Shown in pieces: positions 3,362 through 50,106 of a stretch of 64,000 nucleotides of DNA (position 1 is the stretch's first letter; the number at the start of each line of letters is the position of its first letter). The stretch comes from a virus. Its lineage: Duplodnaviria > Caudoviricetes. A model generated the notes under the pieces. The model had not been told where the DNA came from. It was given only the letters and a program-made list of their open reading frames with translations, and ran no database searches. The stretch lies in IMG/VR virus record IMGVR_UViG_3300033075_000927, positions 1 through 64,000 of that record; one strand, written 5' to 3'. A program made the translations under genes and the position numbers.

Positions 3362-3961
3362 ATGGCTGAACATATTATACGTCAAGTTCCTCGTCCCGTT
3401 TCGAGGGCGCCTACTCAAAAACTTGAAAAGGTTTCTAAGCCTGAAAAGGTTTTTAAGCCCGTTGAGCCCCAAACCTTGACAGCAGAGTATCTGCGCTCGA
3501 TTTTGCATTACGACCAGGAAACTGGGGTCTTCACGAGGGTAGTCCGTACCTCCAACCGAATACAGGTAGGTGATACCGCAGGAAGCGTAAACGGTCAGGG
3601 GTACATTCACATACGGGTACTTGGTGTGCTGTACCCGGCACACCGATTAGTGTGGCTATACCTGCACGGTGAGTGGCCTAAGCATCAGATAGATCACGTA
3701 GACAGAGACAGGTTGAATAACCGGGCTGCGAATCTGAGAGAGGCGACCCAACAGCAAAACCTAAAGAACAAGGTGACCTACAGCAATAGCAAGTCAGGAC
3801 ACCCAGGAGTCCACTGGTATAGCCGCTACTCCAAGTGGCACGCCGAGATATCTAACAACCGGAAGAGAATAGACTTAGGCTACTACGACACTCTAGAAGA
3901 TGCCATCGCAGCCCGAAAAGCCGGCGAGCTGACGTATTGGGGCGCACACCGCTCCGACTGA
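3362..3961 (+). CDS. HNH endonuclease with AP2-like C-terminal DNA-binding domain
   Basis: AHRLVWLYLHGEWP..IDHVDRDRLNNRAANLREAT motif; C-terminal WHAEI..LGYYDTLEDAIAARK. Confidence 0.9.
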   Translation: MAEHIIRQVPRPVSRAPTQKLEKVSKPEKVFKPVEPQTLTAEYLRSILHYDQETGVFTRVVRTSNRIQVGDTAGSVNGQGYIHIRVLGVLYPAHRLVWLYLHGEWPKHQIDHVDRDRLNNRAANLREATQQQNLKNKVTYSNSKSGHPGVHWYSRYSKWHAEISNNRKRIDLGYYDTLEDAIAARKAGELTYWGAHRSD

Positions 3962-4040: not shown

Positions 4041-4643
4041 ATGTCCAAAGAGTATGTTTTGAGCGATGAGCAACGTAGTCTCTTTCCTGCCTACGTGCAG
4101 AAATTTACTGCTCTCTGTTTGCACACGGTAGAGCCTGATGACAAATTTGACCATGAGTTTGCGATCAAAGCTACTAAGAATCTTTTTAAAATTGCTGGAA
4201 TTGAGCCTCCGAAGAACTTCTTTGTAGGTACGTGGCCAGAATGTGTGGCTGAAGCTCGTCGCATTAACACGGCTATTGACCGGGTAATTGACCCTAAAGC
4301 CCCAGAGAACAAGGAGGTGTCTAGTAGCCTGGGCTGGGGTCAGTTTAGTGCTGCCGCTGCTGGCTTTGCTGAGTTCTTTGTCAAGGAATTTGGAGCTGAT
4401 GAGCTGGCCGAAAAGTACCGCGTCATCATGGACGTTACTTTAGCTTCTGGCCCCACGCTGCTGTTCAATGAAGCGGCCTTCCTGTCTTACCATCCAACCG
4501 AGATCATCAAGGGTGAGAACGACTCCTTGACTCCAGTCTGGAACCAGCCAGCTGGTATCGGTGGCTGGGTGCAAGGTGATCCGCAAGAGCTGATCGACTT
4601 CTGCGTGGCCAACAAGCGCAAAGCCGCCAAGAAGCGTCGTTGA
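4041..4643 (+). CDS. hypothetical protein, DUF6745-like
   Basis: RBS AGGAG; N-terminus LSDEQRSLFPAYVQKF and a GQF..A..GF..FF segment resemble DUF6745 proteins as I recall them. Confidence 0.55.
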   Translation: MSKEYVLSDEQRSLFPAYVQKFTALCLHTVEPDDKFDHEFAIKATKNLFKIAGIEPPKNFFVGTWPECVAEARRINTAIDRVIDPKAPENKEVSSSLGWGQFSAAAAGFAEFFVKEFGADELAEKYRVIMDVTLASGPTLLFNEAAFLSYHPTEIIKGENDSLTPVWNQPAGIGGWVQGDPQELIDFCVANKRKAAKKRR

Positions 4644-4694: not shown

Positions 4695-5760
4695 ATGACC
4701 AACACAGCCGTCCACCTAGAAGCAGCTCTTGAGGACAGCCTGCCGTTCATCTACGAGCTTTGGATGTCGCTGGATGTAACGTTCAAGCTGAATCGAGAGG
4801 ACTTGCTATGACACCAGCGTATTTAGCAGTGGAGACTGTGGAGTTTTGCACCGACCTTTGTGACGAGCTGTACTGGACCCTCGACGAGGCCTGGAAGATA
4901 CAAGACCGGAACCTTCTATGACACCGACAAATATCCCGGTAATTGCTTCTCTACCTCACCACGCAGGACTGACGGTCTTCTACTCCCTGCACTACCGCAT
5001 GCTATACACCGTCCAGGAGTCGGTACCACCATGAACCCAACAGATTACGCTGAACTGACCCTGGATGCGATGGAATTTGACCTGGTGAACCACGCCAATG
5101 TAAGCTACGTTACGACCAACGAGACCATAGAGTCGATGCTTGGCATACCAGATCTTCCAGAAGCTGTCGAACTGTCTGTTATGGAGTTCAACTATGGCAC
5201 ATTTTAATCGACCTGTAAACAGCATGGAATTCTACTTCTACGGAAGGGAGACCTACACGAAACTTGGCAATGCGGGCCTGAGAAGGCTTGAAACAACGGG
5301 CTTCCAGCTGGCAAACTACTGGCGCTCAAAGCCTGAAGTGCCAGTATGACACCCTACCAATACATGCCAATAGGCACAGCCTACTACCTGATCTGCGCTA
5401 CCGACTTCAGTGAGTTGTCAGAAGCTGGCATGGCCGATCTCAAAGTCCTTGGCCAAAGACTGATATGGATAACTGCACCATGACCGCCTTCCACTTCTAT
5501 ATACCGCACTCAGCGATGTCAACCATAGCAATAAGCAAAGCAAGCCGCCACGTCTGGGATCAACTCGCAGACAACCTGCACAACCCCATCGTATGGCCGC
5601 TGCTGAATGCCTGCAGAGAATGACCGGCGTAAACCTAATAACTTTTGCTACCCCAAAAGCCGGTAGGCTCCGTGCAGTCGAATGGGAGGTATGGGAACAA
5701 CTACTGTACACAGTACATCACACAGCTTTCGATGTTACATACGGCATACGAACCTTCTAA
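4695..5760 (+). other. micro-ORF cluster B (8 microproteins)
   Basis: 4695-4811 (38 aa), 4808-4921 (37 aa MTPAYL), 4918-5034 (38 aa MTPTNI), 5031-5207 (58 aa), 5224-5349 (41 aa), 5346-5483 (45 aa MTPYQY), 5480-5623 (47 aa), 5620-5760 (46 aa). Six ATGA overlaps. Confidence 0.8.
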
Positions 5761-7998: not shown

Positions 7999-8667
7999 AT
8001 GCGCTACTTCTTCACCCTCACTTCCAGTAACGCCAAAACTGGCAACATCCCGCAGGTCTACGCTCAGCGCAGCACCTGCCCGCCAAGTTGTATCCACTAC
8101 GGCACCACCTGCTATGCGGAGGGCTTCTACACCGCCCTTAATTGGCGCAAGGCGGACACCGGCATCACGTTGGCTGAGCTGTGCGACAAAATCTCCAGCC
8201 TGCCTCGCTACCAGCTCTGGCGCTACGCAGTGGCTGGAGACCTGCCGGGGCAGGGTGAGGCTGTCGATTCAGAGGCGCTGATGCACATCGCGGCGGCCAA
8301 TTACAGTAAGCTGGGCTTCGGCTTCACACACAAGCGGTCTGATGAGGCCCTGGCCGCAGCCCGTAAAGCAACGGCTGCCGGGTTCACAATCAACGTGTCC
8401 GCAGACGGGCTGGCCGACCTTGACCAGCTGCATGCTCGCGGGGCCTGGCCACTGGTCGTCACGCTGCCATCCGATTCGCCGCGCCGCCTGACCTCGCCAG
8501 CTGGCCTGCCGGTGGCCATTTGCCCGGCCCAGGTCATGGACACGAACTGCGACCGCTGCCGCCTCTGCGCCCGGCCCGAGCGCAAGGTGGTGGTCGGCTT
8601 CTTGGCCCACGGCAACCGCAAGGTTCGACTTGATGGGCGACTTCGGGCGATGGTGGAGGGCATATGA
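7999..8667 (+). CDS. Cys-rich phage protein, GP88-like (possible Fe-S/radical-SAM-like fold)
   Basis: NAKTG..TCPPSC....TCYA, WRYAVAGD and C-terminal CPAQ....CDRCRLC motifs. Confidence 0.5.
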   Translation: MRYFFTLTSSNAKTGNIPQVYAQRSTCPPSCIHYGTTCYAEGFYTALNWRKADTGITLAELCDKISSLPRYQLWRYAVAGDLPGQGEAVDSEALMHIAAANYSKLGFGFTHKRSDEALAAARKATAAGFTINVSADGLADLDQLHARGAWPLVVTLPSDSPRRLTSPAGLPVAICPAQVMDTNCDRCRLCARPERKVVVGFLAHGNRKVRLDGRLRAMVEGI

Positions 8668-10675
8668 ACACCTATGAAACCTGGGAGCTAGGAAATCCGG
8701 CTTGGCTTCTGGATTTCAGCCAGTGCAGAAAGCTTGATGCTGCTCTCTTGGCGGTGCCGGGCACGAGGCTTCTACGGGCAGTACGTGAGGGCCTGAAAAC
8801 ATGACACCTCGATGCTACGAGATCGGTGAGTTCATGCTGTGCCAGCTCTACGGAGCGTGGCCTATTGCAGACCCTCACGGCGTAAAGCTGCGGGAACTAT
8901 CTGAGTATCTCTTGCTGAATGTAAGAGATCCAGCAAGGTTCGGTGTCGATGTTTTTGGGTGGGTAGAGCAATGAACGCAGCTTCACTACCATTTGAAGAC
9001 GCGCGTAGCGATGACACATTCTGGCACGGGCACGAATGCTGCCAACTTCAGGAGGCTATAGTGGCTGGTGTTCCGCATATGTTTTACCAAGTCTTAGACC
9101 CGCTGTGGGATTATGAGGAGGCTATGTGAATCCTGTTAGTTTAGTTAGATGGCATTACTTAGATTGGTATTCAGGCTGGCAGACCTATAACGAAGCGTCT
9201 GTAGTCTTCTCTCTTCGAGAAGGCATACCTAACCTAAACGGCCTACGTCATCCTAGGCAATGGTTAGCATGGGGCTCACAATGACACCAAGAGACGTAGC
9301 ATTAGCGTACATGCAGATACTGTTTAAATACGGAGGGTGGCAGGAGCTCAACGTAGAGCCCCTAACGGAGGCTCTGATTGAACTACCAGATCCGTCTAGA
9401 GGCTGGAGCATGGAAGAGTGGGCCGAACCATGACACCTGCCTACATAAAATTTCGCACATACACCGAGTGCTTCCCCGGTGGCGGGGATGCCTACAGGCG
9501 CGTAAGATACGAGATGTTTGTGGTTTTTGGACTATCGGCGGATTGCCGGAGGAATCTATGACACCCTACAAGACACTCGACCCGTCAGACTTGGCTCTGA
9601 GACTGGGCAATGGCCATGCACACAGGGATGTGGACCTGGAGTTCTGGGCCCTATACTCACTGGCTTTTGGACTGAGAGACCAGCTATGACACCACTGCCA
9701 AGACTAATCCACTACATGCACCTGTATTACTTCCCACGCGGAAGCCAACATCATGTGTTCGTAGCCATGTCAAACGTACCTCACTACCTGCGCAACACGC
9801 TAAAAGCAGACAGGTTGGTGAACCTATGACTGACGTAGACAGCAAAGTCTTCCACTTTACAGGCATGCCATTCACATCGGAAGGCCTGTGGCCAATGCGA
9901 TTAGCCATCCGCGACGGTGTCCCGTCCTACAAAATCCGCGAGTACATTTACACGGAGCTGGAAGCATGACACAAGCAGCGAAACTGTATCGGCTGCAAGT
10001 TCTTGGGCACCTCGGTGACCGGCCCCACGAGCTATTCTCAACCCTGCTGGACTTACCGGGACCCGAACTACAGCACACATTGCAGAAAGGGCTTCGAGCA
10101 TGACACCTCAACTACAGTTGATCCGACTTCAGCAGGTAGGCTCCATTGGAGGGACTTGCGAGTGGGCACTGCTCAGGCAATTCTGCATGATACCGGAACA
10201 TCTAATCCTCCTTGAAGTCAGAAGGATTTGTCACACATGACACCCGCATACACCGCCACAAGCTTCAGCTACTCTGCCAGGATCACCGTGCATAAGTTGC
10301 TTCAGCCATTCCGGCTGGCCCTGGTAGAAGGCACAGGGCAGTACCAATGCCGCGCCCATCTTCGCGGAGGACTTGACGAATGACACCTAGATCAGCAGCC
10401 ATCAGCAACTTCTGCTACCTGCCCTTCCACCAGGGCCTGTACGACCTTGACAGTCCTGAACTGCGCTTGGCCCTGTACCGCATCATCTACAATCCGCGCA
10501 CAACCGTAAAGATCCTGCTATGACCAGCACCCCGCACCTTATCGACCACTGGTTCTGGCTGCCCAGGGTGCTGCCTTGGCAAGGCTTCTACCTGAGAGAG
10601 TTGCAGAAGAAGCTTAGCCTGGTCCACAGGCCACGGTCAGGCAAAATAAATTTCACGCTGTACCAATACCTGTGA
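8664..10675 (+). other. micro-ORF array D (14 consecutive translationally coupled microproteins, 43-57 aa)
   Basis: Starts at 8664, 8801, 8971, 9126, 9281, 9430, 9558, 9686, 9826, 9966, 10100, 10237, 10380, 10520. Every start overlaps the previous stop by exactly 4 nt; eight begin MTP. Confidence 0.88.
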
Positions 10676-10681
10676 TACAAT
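10652..10681 (+). promoter_or_regulatory. sigma70-like promoter
   Basis: TTCACG-18 nt-TACAAT with an extended TG at 10673-10674. Confidence 0.55.
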
Positions 10682-10725: not shown

Positions 10726-11058
10726 ATGACCATCCGCTCCATCCCCAAACCAACCATCGTCCGTACCACCGTCGGTGCCCTGGACTCCACCTTCGCAGCT
10801 CTGCGCCCCGCTACTGACGACTGCCACTTCGAGACCGTTGCTGCCGACAGCACTGTCGAAAAAGTGCGCAACAAGTTGTCGAGCGCCATCAACTCCTACC
10901 GCGTTCGCACTGGTGACAAGTCAGCCTTCTCGATCCGCGTGATCGAGGGCGGCGTGGACGGTATGGAAGCCGTTGGCGTCTGGAAAGAAGACAAGGAATT
11001 CACGCCACGCCCCAAGAAGGTTGTGGCTGAAGTTGCGGCTGAAGTTACCGAAGCCTGA
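10726..11058 (+). CDS. hypothetical protein (110 aa)
   Basis: RBS AAGGAATCACC-ATG and highly biased codons. Confidence 0.8.
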   Translation: MTIRSIPKPTIVRTTVGALDSTFAALRPATDDCHFETVAADSTVEKVRNKLSSAINSYRVRTGDKSAFSIRVIEGGVDGMEAVGVWKEDKEFTPRPKKVVAEVAAEVTEA

Positions 11059-11127
11059 TCAGCAACACCTCACAGCCAACCGACTGCGTAAAACCAGTCG
11101 GTTTTTTATCGCCTACAATTTACCAAA

Positions 11128-11427: not shown

Positions 11428-11919
11428 ATGAGCCGTTACGCAGACATCAAACCCGGAAGCTTGAAACACAAGATCCTCAAGACCTTGGCATCGCCAGACT
11501 ACCTGACCGCCGAGCAAGTCGTGGAGGCCGTCAAGTCCGATGGAACCAGAATCAAAGCCGACGCTGTGCATCACATGCACCTGCGCCCCATGATGACAGC
11601 CGGGCTCGTCTCTGGTGTGCAAACTACTTGGGGCGACTCGGTCGAGATGTACGAGTGGACCTACACTCTCACACTCGACGGCAGGCTCGAACTGCGGGAG
11701 CTTGACGACGAGCTGGCAGGCAAGCCGAAGGAAGGCTTGGTGCCACCCCGTAAAACGCCCATCTCGAAGGAGAACTACGCTGGCGACGAGCTGAAACGCC
11801 TGCCAGGCCTGCCCGCTGACCGCTACGCCGCCTTCGATCTGCCCAGCGTTGCACTTGGATGGCGCGAGTGGCCAAAACACTTGCGAGGCGAGAAGCCGCG
11901 TGAGAAGGTGGAGCTGTGA
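11428..11919 (+). CDS. hypothetical protein, possible winged-helix DNA-binding protein
   Basis: KILKTLASPDYLTAEQVVEAV..HHMHLRPMMTAGLV resembles a wHTH; start moved to MSRYAD. Confidence 0.55.
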   Translation: MSRYADIKPGSLKHKILKTLASPDYLTAEQVVEAVKSDGTRIKADAVHHMHLRPMMTAGLVSGVQTTWGDSVEMYEWTYTLTLDGRLELRELDDELAGKPKEGLVPPRKTPISKENYAGDELKRLPGLPADRYAAFDLPSVALGWREWPKHLRGEKPREKVEL

Positions 11920-13462
11920 CAGAGGTAGGGTTCCTTCTCAGGGGCGGCAGCTCAGTGCCTGCAATTTACGGCATACATGGCGTGATGTCGATCAGCCAGC
12001 GGCTCAAGACCTGGGCCATTCTTTCGGCAGACGGGAGGTTCAGGTGAACGCCGTTGGATTCCGAATCCGGGTTATTCGGATGTATGACGATGTCAGTGGT
12101 ATCACCAGGCATGACGTAAGCACAGGACTTGCTAGGGTCTACGACTGTAACCAGCCGCTGGCAATCTACATATTCCACTACACCAGAAACCTATGACACC
12201 AGTACGCATAGACGAACAGAGGCTAGTGAACTACTGGGCGCACGACGTGTCAAGTTATCTTAGCAGTGCGGCCTACACTGCTGGAATGGTTGGCTTGGCT
12301 ATAAGGGGCTACCTATGACACCTGTCTGGATAGCTGAAAGGCCCTTAGTCGGCTTCTGGCACCACCGGGTAAGCCAGCACCTGGTGGATGTGGTCAATGT
12401 GACCTATAGGATCGCTTCAGCAGTAAGGAACGTATGACACCAGTACAAATCATGGAAAGAGAACTTGTAGGGGTCTACAAGCACACTGCAAGACTGGGGC
12501 TCGGCCCTCTGTCCGACATGGAGGTCAAGTGCTGCGAATCCGTTGCGACGGGCTGTGACACATGACCGCAGTAGACATTAACGAGCATGAGATGGTTGGA
12601 GCTGGACGCTGCCGGGTGAGAGCCGGGCTGGAGCAACTGTTCGAGGTCGGGTTCCAGGCTGCCATCTCTTTAGCGGAGTACCTATGACACCAGTATACCT
12701 ATGACACCAGTGTACCTATGACACCAGTATACATAAATGATCGAGGACTTATCCCAGTGTACGACGGTGACGAGGAAGTGTACGATTCCCTGCACGACCT
12801 CGCACTCGTTGAAGGTAAGGTAGCTGAAGGTGCAACTACATGGCTGGAATCAACATGACACCAACCAAAATAAGCACCCCGAGGCACCTCGTAAGGTGGT
12901 ACAACTACGAGGCTTTGCAGATAAGTAAAAGCTTAGGAAGGTTGGCAAGGCTAGAACTTCATTTAAGGCTATCACAACACCAATCTGTAAGATGACTTCT
13001 GTAGACCAAAGACGAATCCAGCTGCACCATTGGATGACACCTCTACCGATGTGCTCGTGGATAGTGATGAGCTGCTTGAGCATAGCAGAGACTTTCACCC
13101 TGCAAAAGTGGGCATTAAGGAGTTCAGATGACTGAGGCAGAGCTACCCAGAGAAGGCGTAATAACCACGCTGCGGTCTCACATACACCCTAACTTTGAGG
13201 TGCGTAGAGCTGTATACTCTAAAATACCTCAATCGTGGCGGTTGGCTCACTGGTGCCACGTCCAATACGAGCAGCTGACATGACACCAGCAACCTTACTA
13301 AACCCTCAAGGCAAGGTCGCAGAGCCTTGGAATAGGGTAGGCGTACACGCCTTCGACGTTGACCCGTACTCAGATGCGGCGATCATGTTTTACAACCTGC
13401 GGGCCGAGATCGAGCAAGTCCTGGGTGGCAGCTTACGCTACGTGTTGAGGAGGTTTATGTAA
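11916..13462 (+). other. micro-ORF array E (11 microproteins plus 2 hexapeptide units)
   Basis: Starts at 11916, 12044, 12193, 12315, 12434, 12562, 12684 (6 aa), 12701 (6 aa), 12718, 12855, 12992, 13128, 13280. All are 4-nt RTGA overlaps except 13128 (8 nt). Confidence 0.87.
12680..12730 (+). repeat. 17-bp tandem repeat x3 (ACCTATGACACCAGTRT)
   Basis: Direct reading: ACCTATGACACCAGTAT / ACCTATGACACCAGTGT / ACCTATGACACCAGTAT. Confidence 0.95.
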
Positions 13463-13500
13463 CTTCAGGCAAGAATCGACCCACTACCACACCTACCAAC

Positions 13501-13917
13501 ATGAAAAGAAAAAACCTCAACCTCACCCCAGTCGAACGCGCCGTGGCCTACGCCAAGTTCAGCAAGATGCTGACTTCGGCTCACCTACAAGCCCTGATCG
13601 GTGGCGACATGAACAAGGTGCTGGACAGCGTCTGCACCTTGCTCTTCATCGCAGCCGCCGCCGCGCACCATGCTGACATCCTGGACGCTGATGTCAAGAT
13701 CATTCACGGCGCGTGCCGGGCCTCCGTGCAGGCATGCTCCGAAGAGCGTCTGACGGACTTGCACCGTGGAGCCCTCGAATCCGGCCTGCTGGCCATTGAG
13801 CGGCTGCGGCCAAGACTGCCGGTGCCAGCCCTGGTGCTGGCCTCGACAGAAGTGTCCCTCCTGATCCGCCAAGGTGGCGTATACTGGAAGGACTTTCAAA
13901 AATATGTGCCGGAGTAA
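13501..13917 (+). CDS. hypothetical protein (138 aa)
   Basis: ORF track; GC-rich coding bias. Confidence 0.75.
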   Translation: MKRKNLNLTPVERAVAYAKFSKMLTSAHLQALIGGDMNKVLDSVCTLLFIAAAAAHHADILDADVKIIHGACRASVQACSEERLTDLHRGALESGLLAIERLRPRLPVPALVLASTEVSLLIRQGGVYWKDFQKYVPE

Positions 13918-13920
13918 TTT

Positions 13921-14216
13921 ATGACACCAGCCGCGAACGCAACTGAATTAGTGCAAGACTTTGTAGATCAAAACAATTACACTAAGCTAGAAGTTGCCTG
14001 GAGCCTGCGGCCTGCATGCACCAGCCAGATGATTGGCTTCACCAGAGGCTCAGTGTCTGTGGGTGAATGGCCATGACAGAAGCTGGAATCCATGTACGTG
14101 ACCTAAATGTAGGTGAGCTAAACTGCCAGAACACCTACTACATCATAGAAAGTTTAATAACCCAGCCAGCAGCACCTCTGCTGTGGTTGTTTCACTCAGT
14201 GACACCACAACCATGA
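13921..14216 (+). other. micro-ORF pair F
   Basis: 13921-14076 (51 aa MTPAAN) and 14073-14216 (47 aa MTEAGI), ATGA overlap. Confidence 0.7.
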
Positions 14217-29877: not shown

Positions 29878-30558
29878 ATGGGCAGTAAAATTTTAAGCGA
29901 AGCTGACGGAATTGGCCGGGTATTCCACAGGCTGACTGTACTAGGCTGGGCAGGTAAGACCAAACGAAACCACAGGCTCTGGAGGTGTGCTTGCTCCTGC
30001 GGACGTGAGCACATAACCGAAATGTACCCACTCACAGCCGGACTTGTTAAGTCCTGCGGTTGCTATAAGGTTGACATGGCTGGTTCGCATTCTATAACCC
30101 ACGGCGCTGCCTCAATCAAAAGTGACCCTGAAGCCCGCAGAGTTTACCGAGTGTGGACTGGTATACGAAAACGCTGCCTGAGTCCTAAATCCAAAGCATA
30201 CGCAGACTATGGTGGTAGAGGGGTAACGCTATGCGACGAGTGGCTTGATTTCAGCAATTTTATCCGTGATATGGGCCCCAACTCTGAAGGTATGACAGTA
30301 GAGCGTATTGATGTGAATAAGGGCTATGAACCTGGAAACTGCAAGTGGTTGCCGCTCAGTAGACAGAATGAGAACAAGCGCAACACCTTACGAGTAACTT
30401 ACAGCGGTAAAGAGTGGTGCTTGAAGCGTCTGTGCGAACATCTTGAGGTGCCATACGGCAGAACATTCAAAAGGTTACGCAGAATGTCCTTAGCGGAAGC
30501 CCTTGACCTGCCCGACACCTGTGAGATAAGCCTAGTTAACAGGGGTACACAATGCTAA
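29878..30558 (+). CDS. HNH-like endonuclease (CxCxCG type)
   Basis: WRCACSCG, KSCGC, W.GIRKRC, YGGRGVTLCDEW, TVERID..KGYEPGNCKW. Confidence 0.85.
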   Translation: MGSKILSEADGIGRVFHRLTVLGWAGKTKRNHRLWRCACSCGREHITEMYPLTAGLVKSCGCYKVDMAGSHSITHGAASIKSDPEARRVYRVWTGIRKRCLSPKSKAYADYGGRGVTLCDEWLDFSNFIRDMGPNSEGMTVERIDVNKGYEPGNCKWLPLSRQNENKRNTLRVTYSGKEWCLKRLCEHLEVPYGRTFKRLRRMSLAEALDLPDTCEISLVNRGTQC

Positions 30559-31550
30559 CTGTCCTAAACGACTGCCACCTTGGAACTGTACGTTCCGCTG
30601 GAACGACACCAGTCACCCGACAAGCTCTAAGAGAGAGACTTCTAAGCAAGTTCAAGAACTTGCTCCCTGAGCAGGGAGACCTACTGATAGGGGGAGACCT
30701 TTTCGATGCCACCCACATTGCAGCCTCTGACCTGTTCGCGGTGTACGGAATCCTGACTCGTTGGCTGACTGCCAACCCTGACAGCTTCCTGTACAACAGC
30801 CGAGGAAACCACGACTGTGCGAGCTCAAGCAACGTGATGTCAAGCTTTGACCTGCTTGGTAAGCTGTTGACAATGCACTTTCCTAATCGGTACGTGCATA
30901 TAGATAAGCCGACAGCAACACCTCACGGCTATGTCATCCCGCATATGCCAAATCAGGTGCTGTTCGATGACGCGATTGCAGCTGTACCTGAATGTGATTT
31001 CCTGTTTGTGCATTGCAACATCAGCAACTGCTTCGCCGCACAGTCTGATCACAGCCTAAACCTCAGCTTAGAGCAGATCGCTGCGTGCAAGGCCAAGCAG
31101 ATTGTCTGCGCTCACGAGCACCACGGAAGAACACTTGGTAAGGTTACCGTCACAGGCTTGCAGACACCTTCCAGTGTGTCAGACCTACTCAGCCCAGGAG
31201 ACAAGCAGTATGCTGTGATCCGAGACGGCAAGCTCACCTTGCACACCTGCGCCCGCCGCGCCGACGAGTTTGCCGAGATGCCCTGGAACGACCTGAAGCC
31301 CAGCGCCGCGCCGTTCATCCGCATCAGCGGCGAGGCCACGGCAGCTCAGGCCTCTGAAGCCCTGGCCGCAGTCGCCGCCTACCGGCGCACGTCGGAAGCC
31401 CTGGTGGTGGCCAATGCCGTCAAGGTTCAGGCAGCTGAAGGTGCCGACTTCGAGGATGCAGTGGCAGACATGAAGGGGTATGATGTCATGTCCATGCTCC
31501 GGGAAGTCCTGGAGCCGAATGAAGTGAAAATTTTGGAGGGGTTGAAGTGA
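30552..31550 (+). CDS. metallophosphoesterase, SbcD/Mre11-like nuclease
   Basis: DCHLG, GGDLFD, GNHD and AHEH motifs; upstream of the SMC-like ATPase. Confidence 0.85.
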   Translation: MLTVLNDCHLGTVRSAGTTPVTRQALRERLLSKFKNLLPEQGDLLIGGDLFDATHIAASDLFAVYGILTRWLTANPDSFLYNSRGNHDCASSSNVMSSFDLLGKLLTMHFPNRYVHIDKPTATPHGYVIPHMPNQVLFDDAIAAVPECDFLFVHCNISNCFAAQSDHSLNLSLEQIAACKAKQIVCAHEHHGRTLGKVTVTGLQTPSSVSDLLSPGDKQYAVIRDGKLTLHTCARRADEFAEMPWNDLKPSAAPFIRISGEATAAQASEALAAVAAYRRTSEALVVANAVKVQAAEGADFEDAVADMKGYDVMSMLREVLEPNEVKILEGLK

Positions 31551-31771
31551 AATTTTGCAAAGACTGTAAGCACCTGCGACTTTTGTATTGGTGCCAGCAC
31601 CCAAAACTAGGCATCAACACCGTGACAGGTGGGCCACAGTCGGCGCGTGCCGACGAGATTCGCGGAACGCAAGGTCGCTGCGGAAGCGACTGGACTAGGT
31701 GCGGCCCAGAGGCTATCTGGTTCGAGCCCAATATGCGCAGTAGGTTTGTCACATGGCTCACTCAAAAGTGA
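31547..31771 (+). CDS. small Cys-rich protein (74 aa)
   Basis: CKDCKH..C..C..C motif; GTGA overlap. Confidence 0.65.
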   Translation: MKFCKDCKHLRLLYWCQHPKLGINTVTGGPQSARADEIRGTQGRCGSDWTRCGPEAIWFEPNMRSRFVTWLTQK

Positions 31772-31974
31772 TAGCCTACTGCACCAACTGCCGGCACTAC
31801 CAGCCTCCGGCAAAGTCACACGGGGCTGGCCAGTGTCTGGCAGTATCCTTGCCCGCCATCACCGCCAGGGCTCAGGCCTGCGGCACCTTCGGCCACCTGT
31901 TTGAGGCAGCTCCTTTGCACGCTGCGCACCCAAGGATGGTAAAAGGGCCAACAAAGAAGAGGAAATCACCGTGA
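31753..31974 (+). CDS. small Cys-rich protein (73 aa)
   Basis: CTNCRHY..C..C. Confidence 0.55.
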   Translation: MAHSKVIAYCTNCRHYQPPAKSHGAGQCLAVSLPAITARAQACGTFGHLFEAAPLHAAHPRMVKGPTKKRKSP

Positions 31975-32546
31975 ACAGCGTATCGCCACACAGTTACTTC
32001 GCCTACCCGGAAGCCTTCGTACCTGGAGCTGCCATGCTCGTCAATGCAGCATTTGCCACTGTGGGCTGGGGCATCAGTGACCAGACGCTTGGCTTATGAC
32101 ACCGGCTACTGAGCCTGTTGAGCAGTGCAACTGCGCATCCTACTATCTGTCGTACCACCCAGACACGATTACGCTTGTGTTCAGAATCATCCGACCGGTT
32201 ACCCGCATCAGACCCGCCAGAGAGCGACTACTACCATGACACCTTCATTCGATACCTCCACACTTTACTGCCAAACAATAAAAACTACTGTGCATGGGTG
32301 GGTGTACGTTTCGCGTGAGTTCAGAGACGTAGGCCGTAACATCGTGCCGCTGATCGGACTTGTGCTGTGACACCAGCCTACTCCGTAACTAGCCAGAGCT
32401 ACAGCTCACACTACATACAGTATCCGCTAGATGGCTGCGACGCGCAGGCGCTGGTGTATGCAGGCATACGAGAAGTGTTCTTGAAATCACCATTAAGATG
32501 GACTTTACTACAATGGCACCAGCCCACTTCAGCCTCGGCTGTTTAA
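31971..32546 (+). other. micro-ORF cluster G (4 microproteins)
   Basis: 31971-32099 (42 aa), 32096-32239 (47 aa MTPATE), 32236-32370 (44 aa MTPSFD), 32367-32546 (59 aa MTPAYS); all RTGA overlaps. Confidence 0.8.
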
Positions 32547-32652: not shown

Positions 32653-34656
32653 ATGATCAAAACCTTAACACTCACCAACTTCCGCAAGCACCGAGACCTG
32701 CATATCGACTTTGCCCAGGGTCTTACGGTTCTGGCCGGGGACAACGAGGCAGGCAAGTCCTCCGTGCTGGAGGCCCTGCTCTACGCTTGGGGCGGCAGCC
32801 GAGCGCTGCCGCGCTCGCTGGATGCCACAGTCACCTATGGCCAGCCCGTCAGCAGCCTGAAGGTGCAGCTGACCTTCGAGGTTGGCGGCGTGCTGTACAC
32901 CCTCACCCGCTCCAAGGCCGGCGCTGAGATGATGGGCGGCGGGGCACTATCGGTCGGCCAGACGGAGGTGACAGCGGCTGTCGAGCGGCTGCTGGGTGCC
33001 CCGGTGGCCACGCTGAGCCGGCTGCTGGTGGCCAGGCAAACTGACCTGAAGGGTGTGGCCGCCGAGGGCGCTGCAGCCGTCAAGCTGATCGAAGAGCTTG
33101 CCGAACTCGGCGCCATCGAAGACTTGGTCGAAAAGGTGCAGGCCCAGTTGCCATACGGCTCTACGAAGGCGGCGCTCGAAAAGCTCGAAGCTCTGCGCCA
33201 AGAACGCGCCCCGGAGCTGCCCGACTTCTCGCCTGAGCTGAAGCAGGCCGAGCTGGAAGCTGCGCTGGCGGCAGCCGAGGCCAGCGAGGGGGCGGAACTT
33301 GAGCGCGAGGCGCTGGCCGAGTTGCTGGATGCCCAGGCGGCTGACATGGCACACCAGGCAGCCAAGTCTGAGCAGGCGCGGCTGCAAGCCATTCTGGCCC
33401 TGCCGCAGACCAAGCCCCTGGATCACTCTGCCACTCCTGTCGAGCAGATCATCGCTGCGCGGACGGAGCAGGCTCGGCAGGTAGAGCTGCGCAACGCTTG
33501 GGCGGCGTGGACCAACTTGGCCGTGGTCCCTGACCCAGGCCCGATGCCAGTAGTTGACCACGGCGCACCGGAAAAGCTGCAGGCGCAGCTGCGAAACCTT
33601 GGGTACTCACGCCCACAGATAGAGAGCCATTGCGAACATTGCGGCAGCCCGTTGGAACCGCCTACAGCTGAAATACTGGCCAGAGTGGCCGGAATTGACG
33701 CTGAGATGGCTAAGCTGCGAGCAGAGCACCAAGCAGCAGTGGCCGCAAGAGCTGAAGCCGTGGCTGCCCAGACTGCCTGGTGCTCTGCACAGGAGAACTG
33801 GAAAACCTACCTGCACAAGCTTTCGCTGCTCAGTCGCTACGTGCAGGACGGAGCCTGGGTCGGCGGCCCAGTCTCGTCAGAAGTGGACACCACCAACTAC
33901 GACGTGATGCTGAACAACGAGCTGCGCAAGCAGCGCGAGGCTGCTCAGATCGAAGAGCGCATCAAGCTGGAGTCGGTGCAGCGGGCCCAGGCCGAGAAAG
34001 ATTTGGCACGGCTGGTTGTGCCCCCAGCCGTCACCGACCTGGACAACCTGTCGAAGCACGCGGCGCTGCGCAGCAGCCAGGCGCGAACCTTGGCCAAGGT
34101 CGCGCAGTCGGCTGCGGACGGGCTGCGAGCCAAGCAGGCGGCAGCCAGAGACCTGGAGACCCAGTACAAAGTACAGATGGCCACCTACCAAGCCGGGCAG
34201 GCGCAGTTGGCCGAACTGACGCGCACCGTCAGCGAGATGGACACGAACAATGCCCTGATCAAGAAGTTGCGCCAGGCCCGCCCCGTGCTGGCGGCGAAGT
34301 TGTGGGCCGGCCTGCTGGCGGCCATCAGCCGCACGTTCAGCGAGCTGCGCGGTGTGCCTTCGGTGGTGGGCCGGTCTGCCGATGGGTTCGAGGTGGACGG
34401 CAAGCCTGCCTCCGACCTGAGCGGATCGACACTTGACATCTTGGGACTTGCCGTTCGCATCAGCCTGATGCGAGCATTTCTGCCTGGTGTCGGCCTGCTG
34501 ATTCTGGATGAGCCGGCTGCGGCTATGGATGCAGCCCGCGAGGAGCGGCTGCTGGCAGCACTTGCCACACTCGACTTCGGCCAGGTCTTGATGGTTTCAC
34601 ACGGCGACACTGCGAAAGCTGTTGCCGGTAGCGTAATTTTGTTACAAGGAGTCTGA
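32653..34656 (+). CDS. SMC/SbcC/Rad50-like ATPase
   Basis: GDNEAGKSS Walker A, long coiled coil with CEHC hook, LSGS signature, ILDEP. Confidence 0.9.
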   Translation: MIKTLTLTNFRKHRDLHIDFAQGLTVLAGDNEAGKSSVLEALLYAWGGSRALPRSLDATVTYGQPVSSLKVQLTFEVGGVLYTLTRSKAGAEMMGGGALSVGQTEVTAAVERLLGAPVATLSRLLVARQTDLKGVAAEGAAAVKLIEELAELGAIEDLVEKVQAQLPYGSTKAALEKLEALRQERAPELPDFSPELKQAELEAALAAAEASEGAELEREALAELLDAQAADMAHQAAKSEQARLQAILALPQTKPLDHSATPVEQIIAARTEQARQVELRNAWAAWTNLAVVPDPGPMPVVDHGAPEKLQAQLRNLGYSRPQIESHCEHCGSPLEPPTAEILARVAGIDAEMAKLRAEHQAAVAARAEAVAAQTAWCSAQENWKTYLHKLSLLSRYVQDGAWVGGPVSSEVDTTNYDVMLNNELRKQREAAQIEERIKLESVQRAQAEKDLARLVVPPAVTDLDNLSKHAALRSSQARTLAKVAQSAADGLRAKQAAARDLETQYKVQMATYQAGQAQLAELTRTVSEMDTNNALIKKLRQARPVLAAKLWAGLLAAISRTFSELRGVPSVVGRSADGFEVDGKPASDLSGSTLDILGLAVRISLMRAFLPGVGLLILDEPAAAMDAAREERLLAALATLDFGQVLMVSHGDTAKAVAGSVILLQGV

Positions 34657-40641: not shown

Positions 40642-42177
40642 TCAGCCCCAGAGTGAGAGTTCGGCTCGCTTTGACCGGAGGTCTAAAGTCAAGCCCGTGA
40701 TGAGCAGCAGTTTACCTGCCTGCAACCCGAAGCGAGGGAAGGTAACGCGGACGACCTGTCCAATATCGAGGGTTGTGGCAAGTTCCGACTCCCAGCGGAC
40801 GGTGGCGGTGTACGTGCGGCGCTGGATTTTGAATAGGCTCAGCAGGCGGCTGGCTTCTGCCTGCGCATCCGACTCGGAGGTCAGTGCGGTCGTCCTTTGA
40901 AGCTCTCTGGCATTGGGGTATATGCTCTGGGTGTCTGAGTCGGTGGCCACCGCTGTCCGATACTCCTGCGCCAACTCACCGCGCCGAGCGATGGTCACGC
41001 TGCCAGCGATGTCACCGTCAGTTTGCACCGTGTAGAGCTTCTTCCACAGCACGCTCACCTTCCAGGTTGGTAAGCCGTTCAGCTCGTCGCTGGCTGTGAC
41101 CTGCTCCAGCGTCACGATATTGGACGGGCCAAATTCAATGACAGCTGAACCTGTCGGTGCCGCCACGCGAGCGCAGCGCAGCACCCCTGCCTGATCGAAC
41201 CCGTACCACGCACCAAGTGACTGGGCCACCTCGTCCAGCAGTTGCAGCGCAGTGGTGCCAGACCCAGCCTCAGTGCTCGAATCCTGAAAGTAGAGGCCGC
41301 CCAAGGCTGGGTTGGCAGCCTTCAGGGCTGCGATGTCTGAGCTGCTCATCGTCACACCTGCGTCGGTGGCGATAGCGCCCAGTATTTCAGCCAGATATTC
41401 GCTGCCGGCTGTCGCATCGCAGGTTACCGTGCCGACGTGATTTGACCCAAGTCTGAACAGGCCTATCGCCGCGCAGGTGCTATAGGAGCCGCTGGGGACT
41501 GTAGCAGCTTCAAGCGCAGCCAAGTTTGCGTAGTCGTCGTGAAACGTCAGAGCAACCGCCTTGTCGTATACGGCCTGAATAGAGGCTGAACCTGAGTTCA
41601 TCTGGAACATTAGCAGACTAGAGTTGACCACAGGAGGGCTTACATTAAACACCTTCCCATACATCCTAGGCTTACGCTGCCCCTTTAGGTCGTCTGCGGT
41701 GCCCTCTGCCCCGTTTGGCAGTGCGTTGCTGCCTGCGAATACTGGCAGCGGCAGTGGGTTGCTAAGTTTTTCTTGGTTGTCCTTCACTCTCAGTGTCACA
41801 GATCTAAGCGTGACCTCGGCCTGTTCAACAGTGGCCCGCAGCACCAGTGCAAACGTAGAGTACGCAGCCGACTGCTCGCCTACCAGGATTCGGATCGACC
41901 GGCCAAAAGACTTGTCCATCAGGAAGTCTAGGCCCCCGTCAGGATTGGCAAGCACCACCTCTCCGTAGCCCACCTGGGTGCTGCCGAACGCTGCCCCGCC
42001 AGAGAACAGGTCTCTGCGGACCAGCCCAGGCTGCTGCACACGGGGTTCGTAGTAGGTGTTGGCCGGAGAGTCCGCTGGTGTCGTTGTGTAGCCGGCTGTG
42101 GCGTAGCGGTAAACCTCCTCCGCAGCGCCCACGGCTTGATCGGTCACTGTGACTTCGATCAGGTAGATTGTGCTCAT
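40642..42177 (-). CDS. tail tip / baseplate hub protein
   Basis: Immediately after the tape measure; KPRMYG.V.NV.P motif. Confidence 0.65.
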   Translation of the reverse strand: MSTIYLIEVTVTDQAVGAAEEVYRYATAGYTTTPADSPANTYYEPRVQQPGLVRRDLFSGGAAFGSTQVGYGEVVLANPDGGLDFLMDKSFGRSIRILVGEQSAAYSTFALVLRATVEQAEVTLRSVTLRVKDNQEKLSNPLPLPVFAGSNALPNGAEGTADDLKGQRKPRMYGKVFNVSPPVVNSSLLMFQMNSGSASIQAVYDKAVALTFHDDYANLAALEAATVPSGSYSTCAAIGLFRLGSNHVGTVTCDATAGSEYLAEILGAIATDAGVTMSSSDIAALKAANPALGGLYFQDSSTEAGSGTTALQLLDEVAQSLGAWYGFDQAGVLRCARVAAPTGSAVIEFGPSNIVTLEQVTASDELNGLPTWKVSVLWKKLYTVQTDGDIAGSVTIARRGELAQEYRTAVATDSDTQSIYPNARELQRTTALTSESDAQAEASRLLSLFKIQRRTYTATVRWESELATTLDIGQVVRVTFPRFGLQAGKLLLITGLTLDLRSKRAELSLWG

Positions 42178-45100
42178 CGTGCAAGTTCCATTAGTCGTTG
42201 AGATTTTGCGGAGTCTGCTGAGGCATCAGCAATGACCTCCAGGGTCTCGATCTGGGCCTTCCCTACGGCTTGGGCAACGCGGACGTTGGCTGCGGCGTGC
42301 TGCTTCAGTTCGGCCACCTCGGCTCGCAGGGCACGCAACTCAGCCACCAGCTCTGAGTTGTCGCCCTGCCCAGAGTAGCCAGCCAGCAGGTCGCGAGTCT
42401 GCTGGGCAGAATAGATACGTGCAGCCCCCGTCACCTCAAGTTCTGGGCCGTTCTCGCCTACTAGGCGCATGCCTCCTGCGTGGAAGCCGCCACGGGCGAA
42501 GGCCAGCCCTTCCTTACGCCACTGCGCGGCTATTTCAGGGTACGTCAAGGCCAGCGAGGCCATGTCTGATGCGGAGTTGGTGGACAGTGGCACCTTGGTT
42601 CCATCGGCCTTTGTCCATACAGCACCGGAGCCTGTATTGCGGACGGTCCCACCAGCCCAGTCTACGGTAGTGCCGGCAGCTGTACCGAGGAAGTCCTTAG
42701 TGGCCTTCAACGCAGCTTCTGCTGGTTGTGCTAGATACTGATTAGCCCAAGCACTGTTCAGGTCTGGGTTAGTCTTTGCCAGGTCCACTACCGACGCTCC
42801 ACTGGAGATTGTCGATGTACCGCTCGGTCCAGTTACCGTAGATTGCCCGTTCCCGGTATTTGTAACAGTGACGTTGCTGCCAGGTATTTTCGCACTCTGA
42901 CCAACAGACGAGGTTCTGAACCAGCTGTCGTAGTCAGCTTGCATCCGAGACAGTAAACTAGCGTTTGTGGCCAGAATCGACACCAACCCTGACGTGTTGC
43001 CTTTAATCGCTTCGAGTAGAGTTATTTGGCCGTTGCCGTCAGCGTCAATAGCAGTGAACACCTTGTTCAGGGTTGACTCGCTAGCCATGCTGGAAAATTT
43101 AGCCAACATCTCCTTAAGTGACACAGTTGAGTCGCCGTTTGTATCTATATACCGCAGGTGACTTACCAGGTCAACAGAGATGGCTGATGACACGGAGCTG
43201 GTGTATAGCTGCATGGATTCACTGAGTGACTTGACACTGCTGCCTATTTCCTTAAGTGCTTCCAGCTGCCTCTCAGCGTCGGTAAGCTCAGCTACTGCCG
43301 ACTCCTTAGCCACCTTGGCTGCCGCCTCAGTCGCTGTCAACATAGTATTCACGCCAGCTAGGTCTGTGAAGTATCCCTGGCTAGATGCGTAATAGGAGGA
43401 AGAGGCGTCCAGGAACTTGCCTGCTACGTCTGAGAACTCAGCCATAGCAGACTTGTCACCTGACCGCACCAGAGCCTGATTCTTGTCTAACTCAACTTTC
43501 GCTGCCCTGTAGGCCTCCTGCGGGCTGAGTTGTGACTTATTAAGACTTATATCTGTCCTGAACTTCGCCAAAGACTCCAGCACAGTAGTGAAGTCGTTTA
43601 CAGCACTCTGCAATGAGCTGATCAGCTCACCAAGAGCTGACACCATAGCGTCCTTAGCCTCGGACACCGCCTCCATAGCGTTGACGTGATCAAATAAGGC
43701 TCTGTTGCCTGGCAAAATCTGAGCACGCTCCAGGGCCAGAAGCTCTGTACGAGTCATTGTCGCTTCATTCAACCGCTGCTGCAGCCCCTTCTGCTCTTTT
43801 GCCAGCTGAACAGAGTCAAACAGCGCCTGATTGCCTGGCAAAATCTGAGCACGCTCCAGAGCCAGAAGCTCTGTGCGAGACATAGTTGCCTCATTCAACT
43901 GCTGCTGCAGCCCTTTCTGCTCTTCTGCCAGCTGAACAGAGTCAAACAGTGCCTGATTGCCTGGCAAAATCTGAGCACGCTCCAGAGCCAGCAGCTCTGT
44001 GCGAGACATAGTTGCTTCGTTAAGACGCTGTTCCAGACTTTTACGCTCTTCTGCCAGCTGAACAGAGTCAAACAAAGCCTGATTGCCTGGCAGAATCTGA
44101 GCACGCTCCAGAGCCAGAAGCTCTGTACGAGTCATTGTAGCTTCATTAAGTCTCTGATCTAAGCTCTTACGCTCTTCTGCCAACTGTACAGAGTCAAACA
44201 GCGCCTGATTGCCTGGCAAAATCTGAGCACGCTCCAGAGCCAGAAGCTCTGTACGAGTCATTGTAGCTTCATTAAGACGTTGTTGCAGGTCTTTAGCCTC
44301 TTCCAGCGTAGCGACGGCAAACAACAGACCTACATTTGATATGTCGTACTGCTTGGCCTCCTGCTCCAGCAGCTGGGTCTTTGTCATGCTTGCGGCATTC
44401 CAACGGTCTGTCAGACCTGCCAGCTGAGTTTCGCGGGTGACCTGATCCTCCAGGGCGAAGATACGGCGGCGGCTGACTTTCTCGTCTTCGCTCAGCAGCG
44501 CGATGTCGAGTTCTCTCTGACGGTTCAGAGCCTCCTGCGATTTGCCCTGGGCGTTCAGGATGGCGATCTGGGCCTGCTGCTCGGCGTTCCACCAGCCATA
44601 GGCGCGGGACAGGGCCTCCTGAGCGGTCTCGCCAACCTTCTGGATGGACTGAATCCCGCCGACCTGGCCTGCTACGCCCTCGGCATACGTAGCAACCTGG
44701 TCAGACAGAATCTGGGCAAACTTGGCCTGCACCTGCTCAGCAGTCATGCCATCCTGCTTGAACTCGGTGGCAGCCTCGTCGATTTTCAGTGTGTAGCCTG
44801 CGATGCGCGAGGCATCCATGCCCAGCGCGTCCGCCATAGCCTTGGTGCTGCCGATGATCTGGCCGGTGGCCTGGTTCATCACGTTGGTCAGCTCTGCCGA
44901 GTCGGTGCGATCCTTCCAGTATTTTGGGCCACTGAACAAGGTTCCAGACTTGCGCATATTGGCGTAAGTCTCAATGTCCGAAGACGCGCCAATGGTGCCG
45001 CTCAGGCCAGTGCCAACCTGCTTCGTCTTACGGAACACGCCAAGTGCGTTGAGGGCTACAAGGGCGGCAGCTGCAGGCCCTGCAACTGAGGCCAAGGCCG

Positions 45101-49685: not shown

Positions 49686-49731
49686 GCTGGTTTCCTGTTC
49701 GCTGCTATGCAGCGATGGTACCCGGAACCGG

Positions 49732-49765
49732 AAAAAATGAAGCCCCGGCAGGCGGGGCTTTTCAC
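49732..49765 (-). terminator. intrinsic terminator
   Basis: Minus strand AAGCCCCG-CCTGC-CGGGGCTT followed by CATTTTTT. Confidence 0.65.
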
Positions 49766-50106
49766 TTATTGGACGACTTCGCTGGCTTTTTCGCCTCAAT
49801 CCGATCTCGCCAGTGCGCGTCCAGGCGACGCATCAGGCCCCAAAGCTCCTCGGCTTCGTCAATCTCCACCGAGTGCAACCAGCAGTAGGCCTGGAAAACC
49901 GGAAGGCTGATCGGCAGCAGCCCGGACATGCTGTAGGGCCTACTGCCGGAAAGCTCTAGGAATGCGTCATACAGATTCTGCTGGTAGACGCTCAGCTTGG
50001 GCTGGGAGCTGATGGCCTTGGGTACGATGCCAGTCTGCTCCATCATCTCGTAGAGGGCTGGCAGCTCCTGGCCCCACTCTACACTCCACGAGATGTAGTC
50101 CGTCAG
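49762..50106 (-). CDS. tail assembly chaperone, -1 frameshift extension (gpT-like)
   Basis: The -1 frame after the slippery site reads LTDYISWSVEW..MMEQTGIVP to the stop at 49762. Confidence 0.8.
   Translation of the reverse strand: MTDYISWSVEWGQELPALYEMMEQTGIVPKAISSQPKLSVYQQNLYDAFLELSGSRPYSMSGLLPISLPVFQAYCWLHSVEIDEAEELWGLMRRLDAHWRDRIEAKKPAKSSNK

Follow-up and report, generated by a model that had tools for sequence, protein, structure and literature searches.

A chain of 14 overlapping microgenes, exchanged unit by unit among relatives of a siphovirus-like phage

Sister phages are known to differ in runs of tiny orphan genes, but such runs are poorly described. Examples include the hyperplastic regions of T4-like phages, the host-takeover module of SPO1 and the small-gene runs of actinobacteriophages; most of these genes have no known function and are presumed to be directed at the host, and phage annotation routinely misses proteins shorter than 60 residues. 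We describe here a locus of this general kind in the virus record IMGVR_UViG_3300033075_000927 of IMG/VR, a complete genome of 78,403 bp of which the first 64 kb form the window. The locus is an array of 14 consecutive open reading frames (ORFs) of 43–57 amino acids (aa) at positions 8664–10675 of the plus strand, referred to as units u1–u14 (Table 1). Like the hyperplastic and other accessory regions, it packs tiny orphan genes on the early strand between conserved anchors, in this case a gene of the DUF7227 family and a 110-aa gene (g110), and varies sharply among near-identical phages. It differs from these regions in that its units are of uniform length and seem to form a single paralogous family, apparently confined to one phage clade, that all of its junctions are overlaps of 4 nucleotides (nt), with a conserved 8-nt junction motif, ATGACACC, and that unit-wise turnover, breakpoints at junctions and chimeras of paralogs can be demonstrated.

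Two other kinds of system invite comparison. The anti-defence (anti-CRISPR) operons of phages also encode small proteins and vary in content at a fixed site between conserved genes. Such operons usually contain one to five unrelated genes, whereas 14 paralogs are found here, and no aca-like helix-turn-helix regulator gene was recognised adjoining the array. No homology to known anti-defence proteins was seen, although no dedicated anti-defence library was searched. The α-solenoids of the tetratricopeptide repeat (TPR) and HEAT types resemble the array in having predicted helix-turn-helix units of about 34–47 residues that follow one another head to tail and change in copy number by recombination. 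In the array, by contrast, every unit has a start and a stop codon of its own and forms a separate ORF, the reading frame rotates and no Pfam repeat is matched.

The junctions themselves resemble those of the ATGA gene pairs, in which the stop and start codons of two genes on the same strand overlap by 4 nt, often with a Shine–Dalgarno (SD)-like motif in the upstream gene, and for which experiments in bacteria and archaea have demonstrated that translation is coupled by termination–reinitiation (PMC6728339; PMC10666635). The present locus departs from the pairs in those studies in placing 15 genes in a row (DUF7227 and the 14 units) and in also conserving the ACACC that follows the start, including the Thr codon ACA; coupling would apply here by analogy. 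No described equivalent of the array was found in the literature. What is particular here is the apparently single, uniform paralog family, the relay of 15 genes that all overlap, a junction that is better conserved than the genes it joins and the documented recombination of units, with chimeras and fusions.

The 14 units have a mean length of 48.1 aa (s.d. 3.7). The start codon is ATG in thirteen of them and GTG in one, the stop is TGA throughout and a 4-nt [AG]TGA overlap is present at every junction; the DUF7227 gene is joined to u1 by the same overlap and, with this junction included, 14 of 14 are of the ATGA/GTGA type. In 2000 first-order Markov simulations with the same dinucleotide make-up the longest chain had four members, compared with the 14 observed. 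The motif ATGACACC, which encodes the residues MTP, begins eight of the 14 units and has 26 copies in the window, where 1.9 would be expected; 24 of the copies are on the plus strand between 0.4 and 32.3 kb. The length of the chain and the excess of the motif confirm the array as it had been described in an earlier note made from the sequence alone, which had listed 14 head-to-tail ORFs, a 4-nt overlap at each junction, eight MTP starts, SD-like stretches in the tails of the preceding ORFs and a preference for rarer codons (CTA, ATA and AGA). All of these features were recovered, the SD-like stretches (GGAG, GAGG or AAGGA, 5–15 nt upstream) at about half of the junctions. CTA, ATA, AGA, AGG and TTA are 2.4–4.5 times commoner in the microgenes than in long genes, and the G+C content at third codon positions (GC3) is 0.60 versus 0.69. 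The 4-nt overlap with a TGA stop is the general junction style of the plus strand of the phage, large genes included, and is therefore not special to the array. The encoded proteins are soluble, rich in Trp, Tyr, His, Leu and Pro and poor in Ala, Lys and Ser, with isoelectric points (pI) ranging from 4.1 to 10.3.

Coding status was assessed using a codon model trained on the long genes of the phage, with two controls: open frames of 43 codons or more that occur by accident within long genes, and true genes cut into 47-codon pieces. The unit's own frame was the best scoring in 11 of the 14 units and in 46 of 54 micro-ORFs genome-wide, compared with 23% of the accidental frames and 98% of the true-gene pieces. 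Twelve related contigs (designated L028 and so forth) came from scanning metagenomes with the DUF7227 protein as query and from look-ups of microprotein matches. The ratio of nonsynonymous to synonymous substitution rates (dN/dS) was 0.05–0.50 in 17 of 18 ortholog comparisons (the exception being u13, at 1.07) and 0.03–0.09 in the flanking genes. Substitutions at codon positions 1, 2 and 3 numbered 68, 61 and 125, respectively (p = 5e-7). Length and frame are retained in alleles that are just 41–48% identical (u1 and u12), indels between orthologs are in frame (for example, 6 nt in u14) and independent pipelines annotate unit genes in the relatives. The units are genuine protein-coding genes, as the frame test, dN/dS, the codon positions and the chain simulation all indicate; purifying selection on orthologous units, which the earlier note had named as a check on their reality, is weaker than on the neighbouring genes yet clearly present.

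Unit strings were assigned by best BLASTP match between the DUF7227 and g110 anchors. Unit content differs in all 12 relatives, which have from three to about 17 units between the two conserved anchors; representative strings are given in Table 1, and additional combinations are present in L048 and in four partial contigs (L030, L031, L032 and L034). Units u5, u6 and u7 occur in almost every combination of presence and absence, while u8–u10 are constant wherever this part is covered. An indel comprising u5 and u6 has ATGACACC exactly at both edges. In contigs from two wastewater runs DUF7227 is joined directly to u7 with five shared letters, a contig from one river run contains a u2–u8 joint, and in L030 and L031 DUF7227 is joined in frame to u3 about 8 nt before the junction. 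Of the breakpoints inspected, the majority coincide with a ATGACACC junction or are no more than about 10 nt from one. In-frame fusions of two units were found in other samples (P0001, P0004 and P0024). Lack of cover at 8649–9504 in runs X7 and X12 and 100-nt skips inside u10 and u14 with short sides (23–30 letters) were not used as evidence. The earlier note had proposed that units are gained and lost at a short junction and had suggested a comparison of relatives for junction-bounded indels. Such indels were found, and the arrays are not identical and collinear; the differences involve whole units, often with breakpoints at junctions, but the proposal does not extend to every event, since some (as in L029) fall away from the junctions.

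Synonymous divergence (dS) swings between 0.14 and 2.2 in adjacent units, compared with 0.3–0.5 in the flanks, and identity to L047 varies from 58% to 92% unit by unit. These jumps point to the exchange of old alleles and not merely to fast evolution. At 4275–4432 of L050, u3 is present as 29-aa and 22-aa pieces, a pseudogenised unit in an otherwise intact chain of 17 units. Genes for HNH endonucleases are located inside the array of L049 (5351–5866), just before that of L032 (1152–1682) and near an array in the window (3362–3961); they were identified by Pfam HNH_3 and, for the window copy, PHROG 99. Homing-type breaks by such endonucleases could drive the exchange of units.

The junction is the best conserved part of the array. 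When the array is aligned to L047 and L028, mismatches affect 4% of positions in the 8-nt ATGACACC, 8.5% in the 10 nt before it, 13% at −20 to −11 and 18–26% in the unit interiors, so that the junction is conserved four to five times better than the interiors or, when taken with the 20 nt before it, two to five times better. The Thr at codon 2 is encoded by ACA in 27 of 40 cases, whereas ACA makes up 19–24% of Thr codons elsewhere, a preference that points to constraint or homogenisation at the nucleotide level. The 4-nt overlap is retained in the relatives with one exception, a TAG/GTG overlap of 1 nt in L047. By analogy with the experimentally studied ATGA pairs, DUF7227 and the 14 units would form one translational relay; we infer that the junction is kept for this relay and that the microhomology it offers for gain and loss of units is a side effect or a benefit. 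Three other accounts of the junction were considered and dropped. A hairpin between ACACC and the SD that would sequester the start is not accompanied by any recurring complementary GGUGU-like motif upstream. For a polyprotein made by programmed −1 frameshifting, the sequences that precede the junctions are all different and none is slippery, and start codons are kept in all relatives. As to recoding, no single frame spans the array when TGA is read as Trp.

The earlier note had taken the bodies of the units to be mutually unrelated, a view that the comparisons among them overturn. With the first three residues removed, eight of the 91 unit pairs scored z > 3 against shuffled sequences, the highest being u9–u12 (6.5), u6–u7 (5.3) and u1–u10 (5.0). 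A hidden Markov model (HMM) built with one group left out recognised the left-out unit at p < 0.05 in nine of 14 cases, compared with 0.7 expected by chance, and BLASTP links u10 to u11, u12 to u9, u1 to the paralog-like u1L and u5 to u5L. An alignment of 43 sequences needs just 62 columns and shows the start M-T-x, an N-terminal stretch that is hydrophobic or aromatic and the core P..LAL..G-[VI]-P. MTP begins 28 of the 54 microgenes and none of 55 larger genes; it is therefore a mark of the family and does not simply follow from the overlap. In natural chimeras, parts of different units meet at homologous positions: the one at 8987–9115 of L028 has the N-terminus of u8 and the C-terminus of a unit X, joined at Arg-Gly, and P0010 has the N-terminus of u5 and the C-terminus of u10, joined at a Pro-rich turn. 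Judged from these similarities, the units appear to be diverged paralogs of one clade-restricted orphan family characterised by the start MTP and the core L..AL..G-[VI]-P, and common descent would account for their uniform length.

Structure predictions and wider searches are consistent with an orphan family of small helical proteins. AlphaFold2 models u5 as two helices with a predicted local distance difference test score (pLDDT) of 64, and u9 as a helix at residues 22–31, a turn at G-V-P and a second helix at 35–46, with a pLDDT of 67 overall and 77–80 in the C-terminal half. A profile search of 1.84 billion representatives gave 11 matches. Nine were orthologs or fusions of units; the other two, long repetitive proteins aligned on short stretches only, were taken as spurious. 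A set of 5.8 billion gave 43 matches, all of them unnamed metagenomic orthologs, variants or fusions. No match to the array was obtained with blastn among 50,697 phage records, no Pfam repeat family was matched by the natural two-unit fusions, and neither an Rfam match nor a DNA tandem repeat was found in the array. The units thus seem to have no detectable homologs outside one phage clade. Hits in the ESM Atlas were discarded, being to unnamed clusters only and at scores that shuffled sequences also reach. A scan of IMG/VR for three copies of ATGACACC spaced 115–145 nt apart returned 21 loci, all of which proved to be unrelated in-frame or DNA tandem repeats containing the 8-mer by accident. 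When 25 loci (20 of these 21, without L027, and L001–L005) were examined for ATGA chains, one chain of four genes was found outside the DNA of the window.

We consider it probable that the locus is a tandem array of 14 real, paralogous microgenes that recombine unit by unit and encode accessory, host-directed early proteins. One long transcript probably carries all units, each of which would be translated by termination–reinitiation at [AG]TGA, often with help from an SD-like stretch near the end of the unit before it. About 28 nt per junction (the SD region, the stop/start and ACACC) would stay near constant while the interiors diverge four to five times faster, and this conserved junction, together with homologous positions inside the paralogs, would be a substrate for unequal and illegitimate recombination. 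Whole units could then be duplicated, deleted, replaced or fused with the relay unbroken, and recombination at the conserved junction would yield sister phages with three to about 17 units between the same anchors. As regards function, the position of the array, the dispensability of its units, the expansion of paralogs, the deep allelic dimorphism and the analogy with other phage accessory regions suggest dispensable early or middle accessory proteins, each a small helical binder of some variable host component, a suggestion in which our confidence is near to even and slightly short of it. A role in host takeover or counter-defence, with each paralog or allele having its own partner, may be inferred from this; the earlier note had proposed effectors of host takeover or anti-defence, or decoys.

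Several observations weigh against parts of this interpretation. Five of the 14 units were recognised no better than shuffled sequences in the leave-one-out HMM test, so that common ancestry of all units is unproven. The low pLDDT values of 64–67 restrict the fold to a statement at the level of secondary structure, and no family or fold match was found in PHROGs (for u1–u10), in Pfam (at E < 0.1), among PDB sequences or with Foldseek. L029 has an out-of-frame deletion from the middle of u4 to the middle of u13 that is not bounded by junctions, and in L031 u4 continues in frame into u6 away from a junction; moreover, junction-bounded events may be in excess because selection favours an intact relay and not because recombination prefers the junctions. 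The rare codons, lower GC3, dN/dS of about 1 in u13, broken u3 of L050 and arrays reduced to 3–5 units imply that many units are dispensable and weakly constrained. Contigs from a wastewater RNA library cover the array but, as carry-over of DNA is possible, are not proof of transcription.

Those signs of weak constraint are also what would be expected if the genes were real but their birth and death largely neutral, eased by unequal recombination at the junctions, the array being genomic froth and not a toolkit. Numbers of units that range so widely among near-identical phages, the broken u3, the truncated or out-of-frame remnants in L029, L047 and L051, the enrichment of rare codons with lower GC3, dN/dS values 2–10 times those of the flanking genes (and about 1 for u13) and the failure to find homologs outside the clade would all fit. 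We regard this account as unlikely, however, as most units hold a dN/dS of 0.05–0.3 over synonymous divergence of 0.3–2, every relative that covers u8, u9 and u10 has kept them, deep allelic dimorphism is in frame and of equal length (u1, u12 and the N-terminal half of u9) and microgenes that make up about 40% of the early-strand genes are a costly load for a packaged genome. Another account is that the units are one machine: they would be the repeats of a solenoid-like protein, each translated on its own at a fixed stoichiometry and then assembled noncovalently or occasionally joined by frameshifting or fusion. Uniform paralogs of helix-turn-helix size in rigid head-to-tail order with coupled translation, a repeat number that varies as in repeat proteins and natural in-frame fusions (P0001, P0004, P0024 and u4–u6 in L031) agree with it, as do published surveys in which the products of overlapping, coupled gene pairs are often subunits of heteromeric complexes (PMC10666635). 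The losses of single units in nearly all combinations (u5, u6 and u7) and the pI spread of 4.1–10.3 fit independent modules better than a fixed complex and, with a slippery heptamer at none of the junctions and each junction having its own start codon in all relatives (including the TAG/GTG −1 overlap of L047), make a single machine quite improbable.

We considered further whether the units might be precursors of the kind that give ribosomally synthesised and post-translationally modified peptides (RiPPs), with a leader that is conserved and a core that varies; they would be processed by the upstream Cys-rich DUF7227 protein or by products of the MoxR/vWA-peptidase genes nearby. Tandem ORFs of precursor size coupled to an enzyme-like gene with conserved cysteines recall such systems, and in a second array of the window (12193–12858) the N-terminal 13 residues are constant while the C-termini vary. 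The units of the 14-unit array share only three N-terminal residues, u9 conserving its C-terminal half instead, and what marks them is an amphipathic helix-turn-helix core in their interior; a core peptide rich in Cys, Ser or Thr was not seen. Furthermore, distant phages have DUF7227 without a downstream array (L003 and L039), a gene of 176 aa lies between DUF7227 and the units in L032 and scans of the neighbours against Pfam and PHROGs revealed no recognisable RiPP enzyme domain, leaving this explanation very improbable. It is scarcely credible that the ORFs are spurious, whether because the region is noncoding or because another code or frame is used. Their shortness, unusual codon usage and lack of a database family would suit this notion, and stops that are all TGA might hint at recoding, but a chain of this length is statistically impossible by chance, the codon signal is frame specific, substitutions are in excess at third positions, dN/dS is below 1, ortholog indels are in frame, reading TGA as Trp opens no spanning frame and neither a structured RNA family in Rfam nor a DNA tandem repeat explains the region.

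Table 1. Features of the array and its surroundings in the window, and unit strings of relatives. Labels beginning with L are contigs; X, 5L and 1L are units found in relatives.
Feature	Coordinates	Strand	Observations
DUF7227 gene, 222 aa, upstream anchor	7999..8667	+	TGA overlaps u1 start (ATGA); Pfam PF23872, E=2e-59; PHROG 2554 (unknown function)
u1, 46 aa, MNT...	8664..8804	+	Same-length diverged alleles (L028, 41% aa identity, dS 1.6); paralog-like u1L in L034, L048 and L050
u2, 57 aa, MTP...	8801..8974	+	dN/dS 0.05; in L028, L047 and L051; absent from L029–L031 and L034
u3, 52 aa, MNA...	8971..9129	+	dN/dS 0.18; broken into 29 + 22 aa in L050
u4, 52 aa, GTG start, Trp-rich	9126..9284	+	dN/dS 0.10; in-frame fusion to u6 in L031; truncated in L029
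u5, 50 aa, MTP...	9281..9433	+	Paralogs at 5480–5623 of the window and u5L in L034; absent from L028, L034, L031, L048 and L051
u6, 43 aa, MTP...	9430..9561	+	dN/dS 0.45 versus L031; u5+u6 indel bounded by ATGACACC
u7, 43 aa, MTP...	9558..9689	+	dN/dS 0.15; absent from L047, L049, L050 and L051
u8, 47 aa, MTP...	9686..9829	+	In every relative covering the site; N-terminal 19 codons in chimera with unit X (L028 8987–9115)
u9, 47 aa, MTD...	9826..9969	+	N-terminal half consists of two recombining allelic modules; C-terminal half (WPMRLAIRDGVPSYKIRE...) conserved
u10, 45 aa, MTQ...	9966..10103	+	dN/dS 0.18; BLASTP to u11, E 2e-5; u5N+u10C chimera in P0010
u11, 46 aa, MTP...	10100..10240	+	Followed in L050 by two extra units, flanked by a repeated junction of ~20 nt
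u12, 48 aa, MTP...	10237..10383	+	Two deep alleles, dS 2.2; paralogy to u9, z 6.5, BLASTP 1e-4
u13, 47 aa, MTP...	10380..10523	+	dN/dS 1.07 versus L028, the sole unit near 1; in-frame fusion to u14 in P0004
u14, 51 aa, MTS..., last of chain	10520..10675	+	~20 metagenomic orthologs
Sigma-70-like promoter match (TG-extended −10), end of u14, ahead of g110	10652..10681	+	Consensus scan only; not evidence of function
g110, 110-aa gene, function unknown, downstream anchor	10726..11058	+	93–99% aa identity in relatives; dN/dS 0.08
Terminator-like hairpin, strong, 9-bp stem, after g110	11078-11103	+	Sequence scan
Coupled microgenes of the same style (MTPAY..., MTPTN..., MTPYQ..., MTAFH...)	4695..5623	+	5480–5623 is a u5 paralog
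Second coupled microgene run	11916..14216	+	Clear paralogs MTPVxIxExxLV at 12193–12858; two 6-codon stubs; ORF tiling, paralog search
Coupled micro-ORFs of 74, 68, 42, 47, 44 and 59 aa	31547..32546	+	Between a 332-aa gene (30552–31550) and an SbcC-like ATPase gene (AAA_23/SMC_N, 32653–34656); ORF tiling
Window units			1-2-3-4-5-6-7-8-9-10-11-12-13-14
L047 units			1-2-3-4-5-(remnant of 6)-8-...-14
L028 units			1'-2-(8/X chimera)-3-4-7-8-...-14
L050 units			5L-1L-X-(broken 3)-4-5-6-8-9-10-11-new-new-12'-13-14
L049 units			1'-4'-5-8-9-10-11-HNH-14
L051 units			5L-2-8-9-10-stub
L029 units			X-3-(truncated 4)-14

The 14-unit chain is the longest of several in this genome. Tiling of the early strand yields 54 ORFs of 30–62 aa, roughly 40% of its genes, with further chains at 252–592 and 853–1221, the three listed in Table 1 and others beyond the window. 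The second array also shows turnover: 11916–12855 is absent from L047, and two larger genes replace approximately 11932–12316 in L029. Within it, a 17-bp unit (ATGACACCAGT[AG]TACCT) is repeated three times in tandem at 12684–12734, generating two stub ORFs of six codons (MTPVYL-stop), each with an ATGA overlap, before a full 46-aa unit. This repeat looks like slippage or recombination at a junction caught in the act. A second microprotein subfamily, [MV]TPCxYD[AG]CN..., has four copies located at 252–592 and 950–1105 of the window and at 73144–73302 of the genome, three of which are clearly paralogous by phmmer. The chain at 31547–32546 is preceded by a 332-aa gene that was labelled SbcD-like in the first reading; SbcD and SbcC genes are normally adjacent.

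The minus strand encodes a 2541-aa tape-measure protein and a GpA-type terminase, a siphovirus-like gene set, and the plus strand encodes PolA, a primase-like protein, an SNF2 helicase and the SbcC-like ATPase. The array appears, from its gene neighbourhood, to be placed in the early/middle, replication-side block of a 78-kb siphovirus-like phage. The tape-measure protein (42174–49799, minus strand) has sub-threshold EF-hand matches near residue 2244. The closest cultured phages are Vibrio phage SHOU24-like viruses, with 26–35% aa identity; no comparable array is present in the 18-kb stretch of SHOU24 examined around its helicase and primase genes. A search of IMG/VR with the SNF2 helicase did not find a close relative. 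At least 11 metagenome studies contain the phage, with samples from rivers, lakes, sediment and wastewater.

The DUF7227 protein is 90–98% identical across the 12 metagenomic relatives. It has a Cys-rich N-terminal motif, C-P-P-S-C-x6-C, with further conserved Cys near the C-terminus, and aligns to PHROG 2554, a much longer profile, at the C-terminal 210 positions of the latter. The family name DUF7227 was not mentioned in any paper found. No relatives of the protein were present in 185,579 prokaryote genomes, which therefore offer no prophage or host clue, and the distant phages that encode it (L003 and L039, about 40% identity) have ordinary genes downstream. At the other end of the array, the promoter-like site and the hairpin hint that g110 may be a small transcription unit of its own; the consensus scan gave no promoter-like or terminator-like matches on the plus strand inside the array.

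The tandem array, if read as above, is an unusually clean natural experiment, with one orphan family in a fixed slot and a dozen sister phages that have different sets of units. Its approximately 20 peptide types are short enough for synthesis and could be screened for host targets or for counter-defence activity. A bolder and, in our estimation, improbable reading is that the locus is a recombination-driven diversity system in which reshuffled microprotein modules form a combinatorial library of binders that tracks variable host targets such as defence proteins; the conserved junction of about 28 nt and the common helix-turn-helix core would allow the phage population to keep reshuffling, duplicating, fusing and swapping modules, and HNH homing endonucleases landing in the arrays may assist the reshuffling. 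If true, this would represent a cassette logic like that of integrons or antigenic-variation loci, built from translationally relayed microgenes. Should the units turn out to be specific inhibitors, new small modulators of bacterial proteins would be available from the locus. The array also provides a testable model for the evolution of long translational relays and of cassettes bounded by microhomology.

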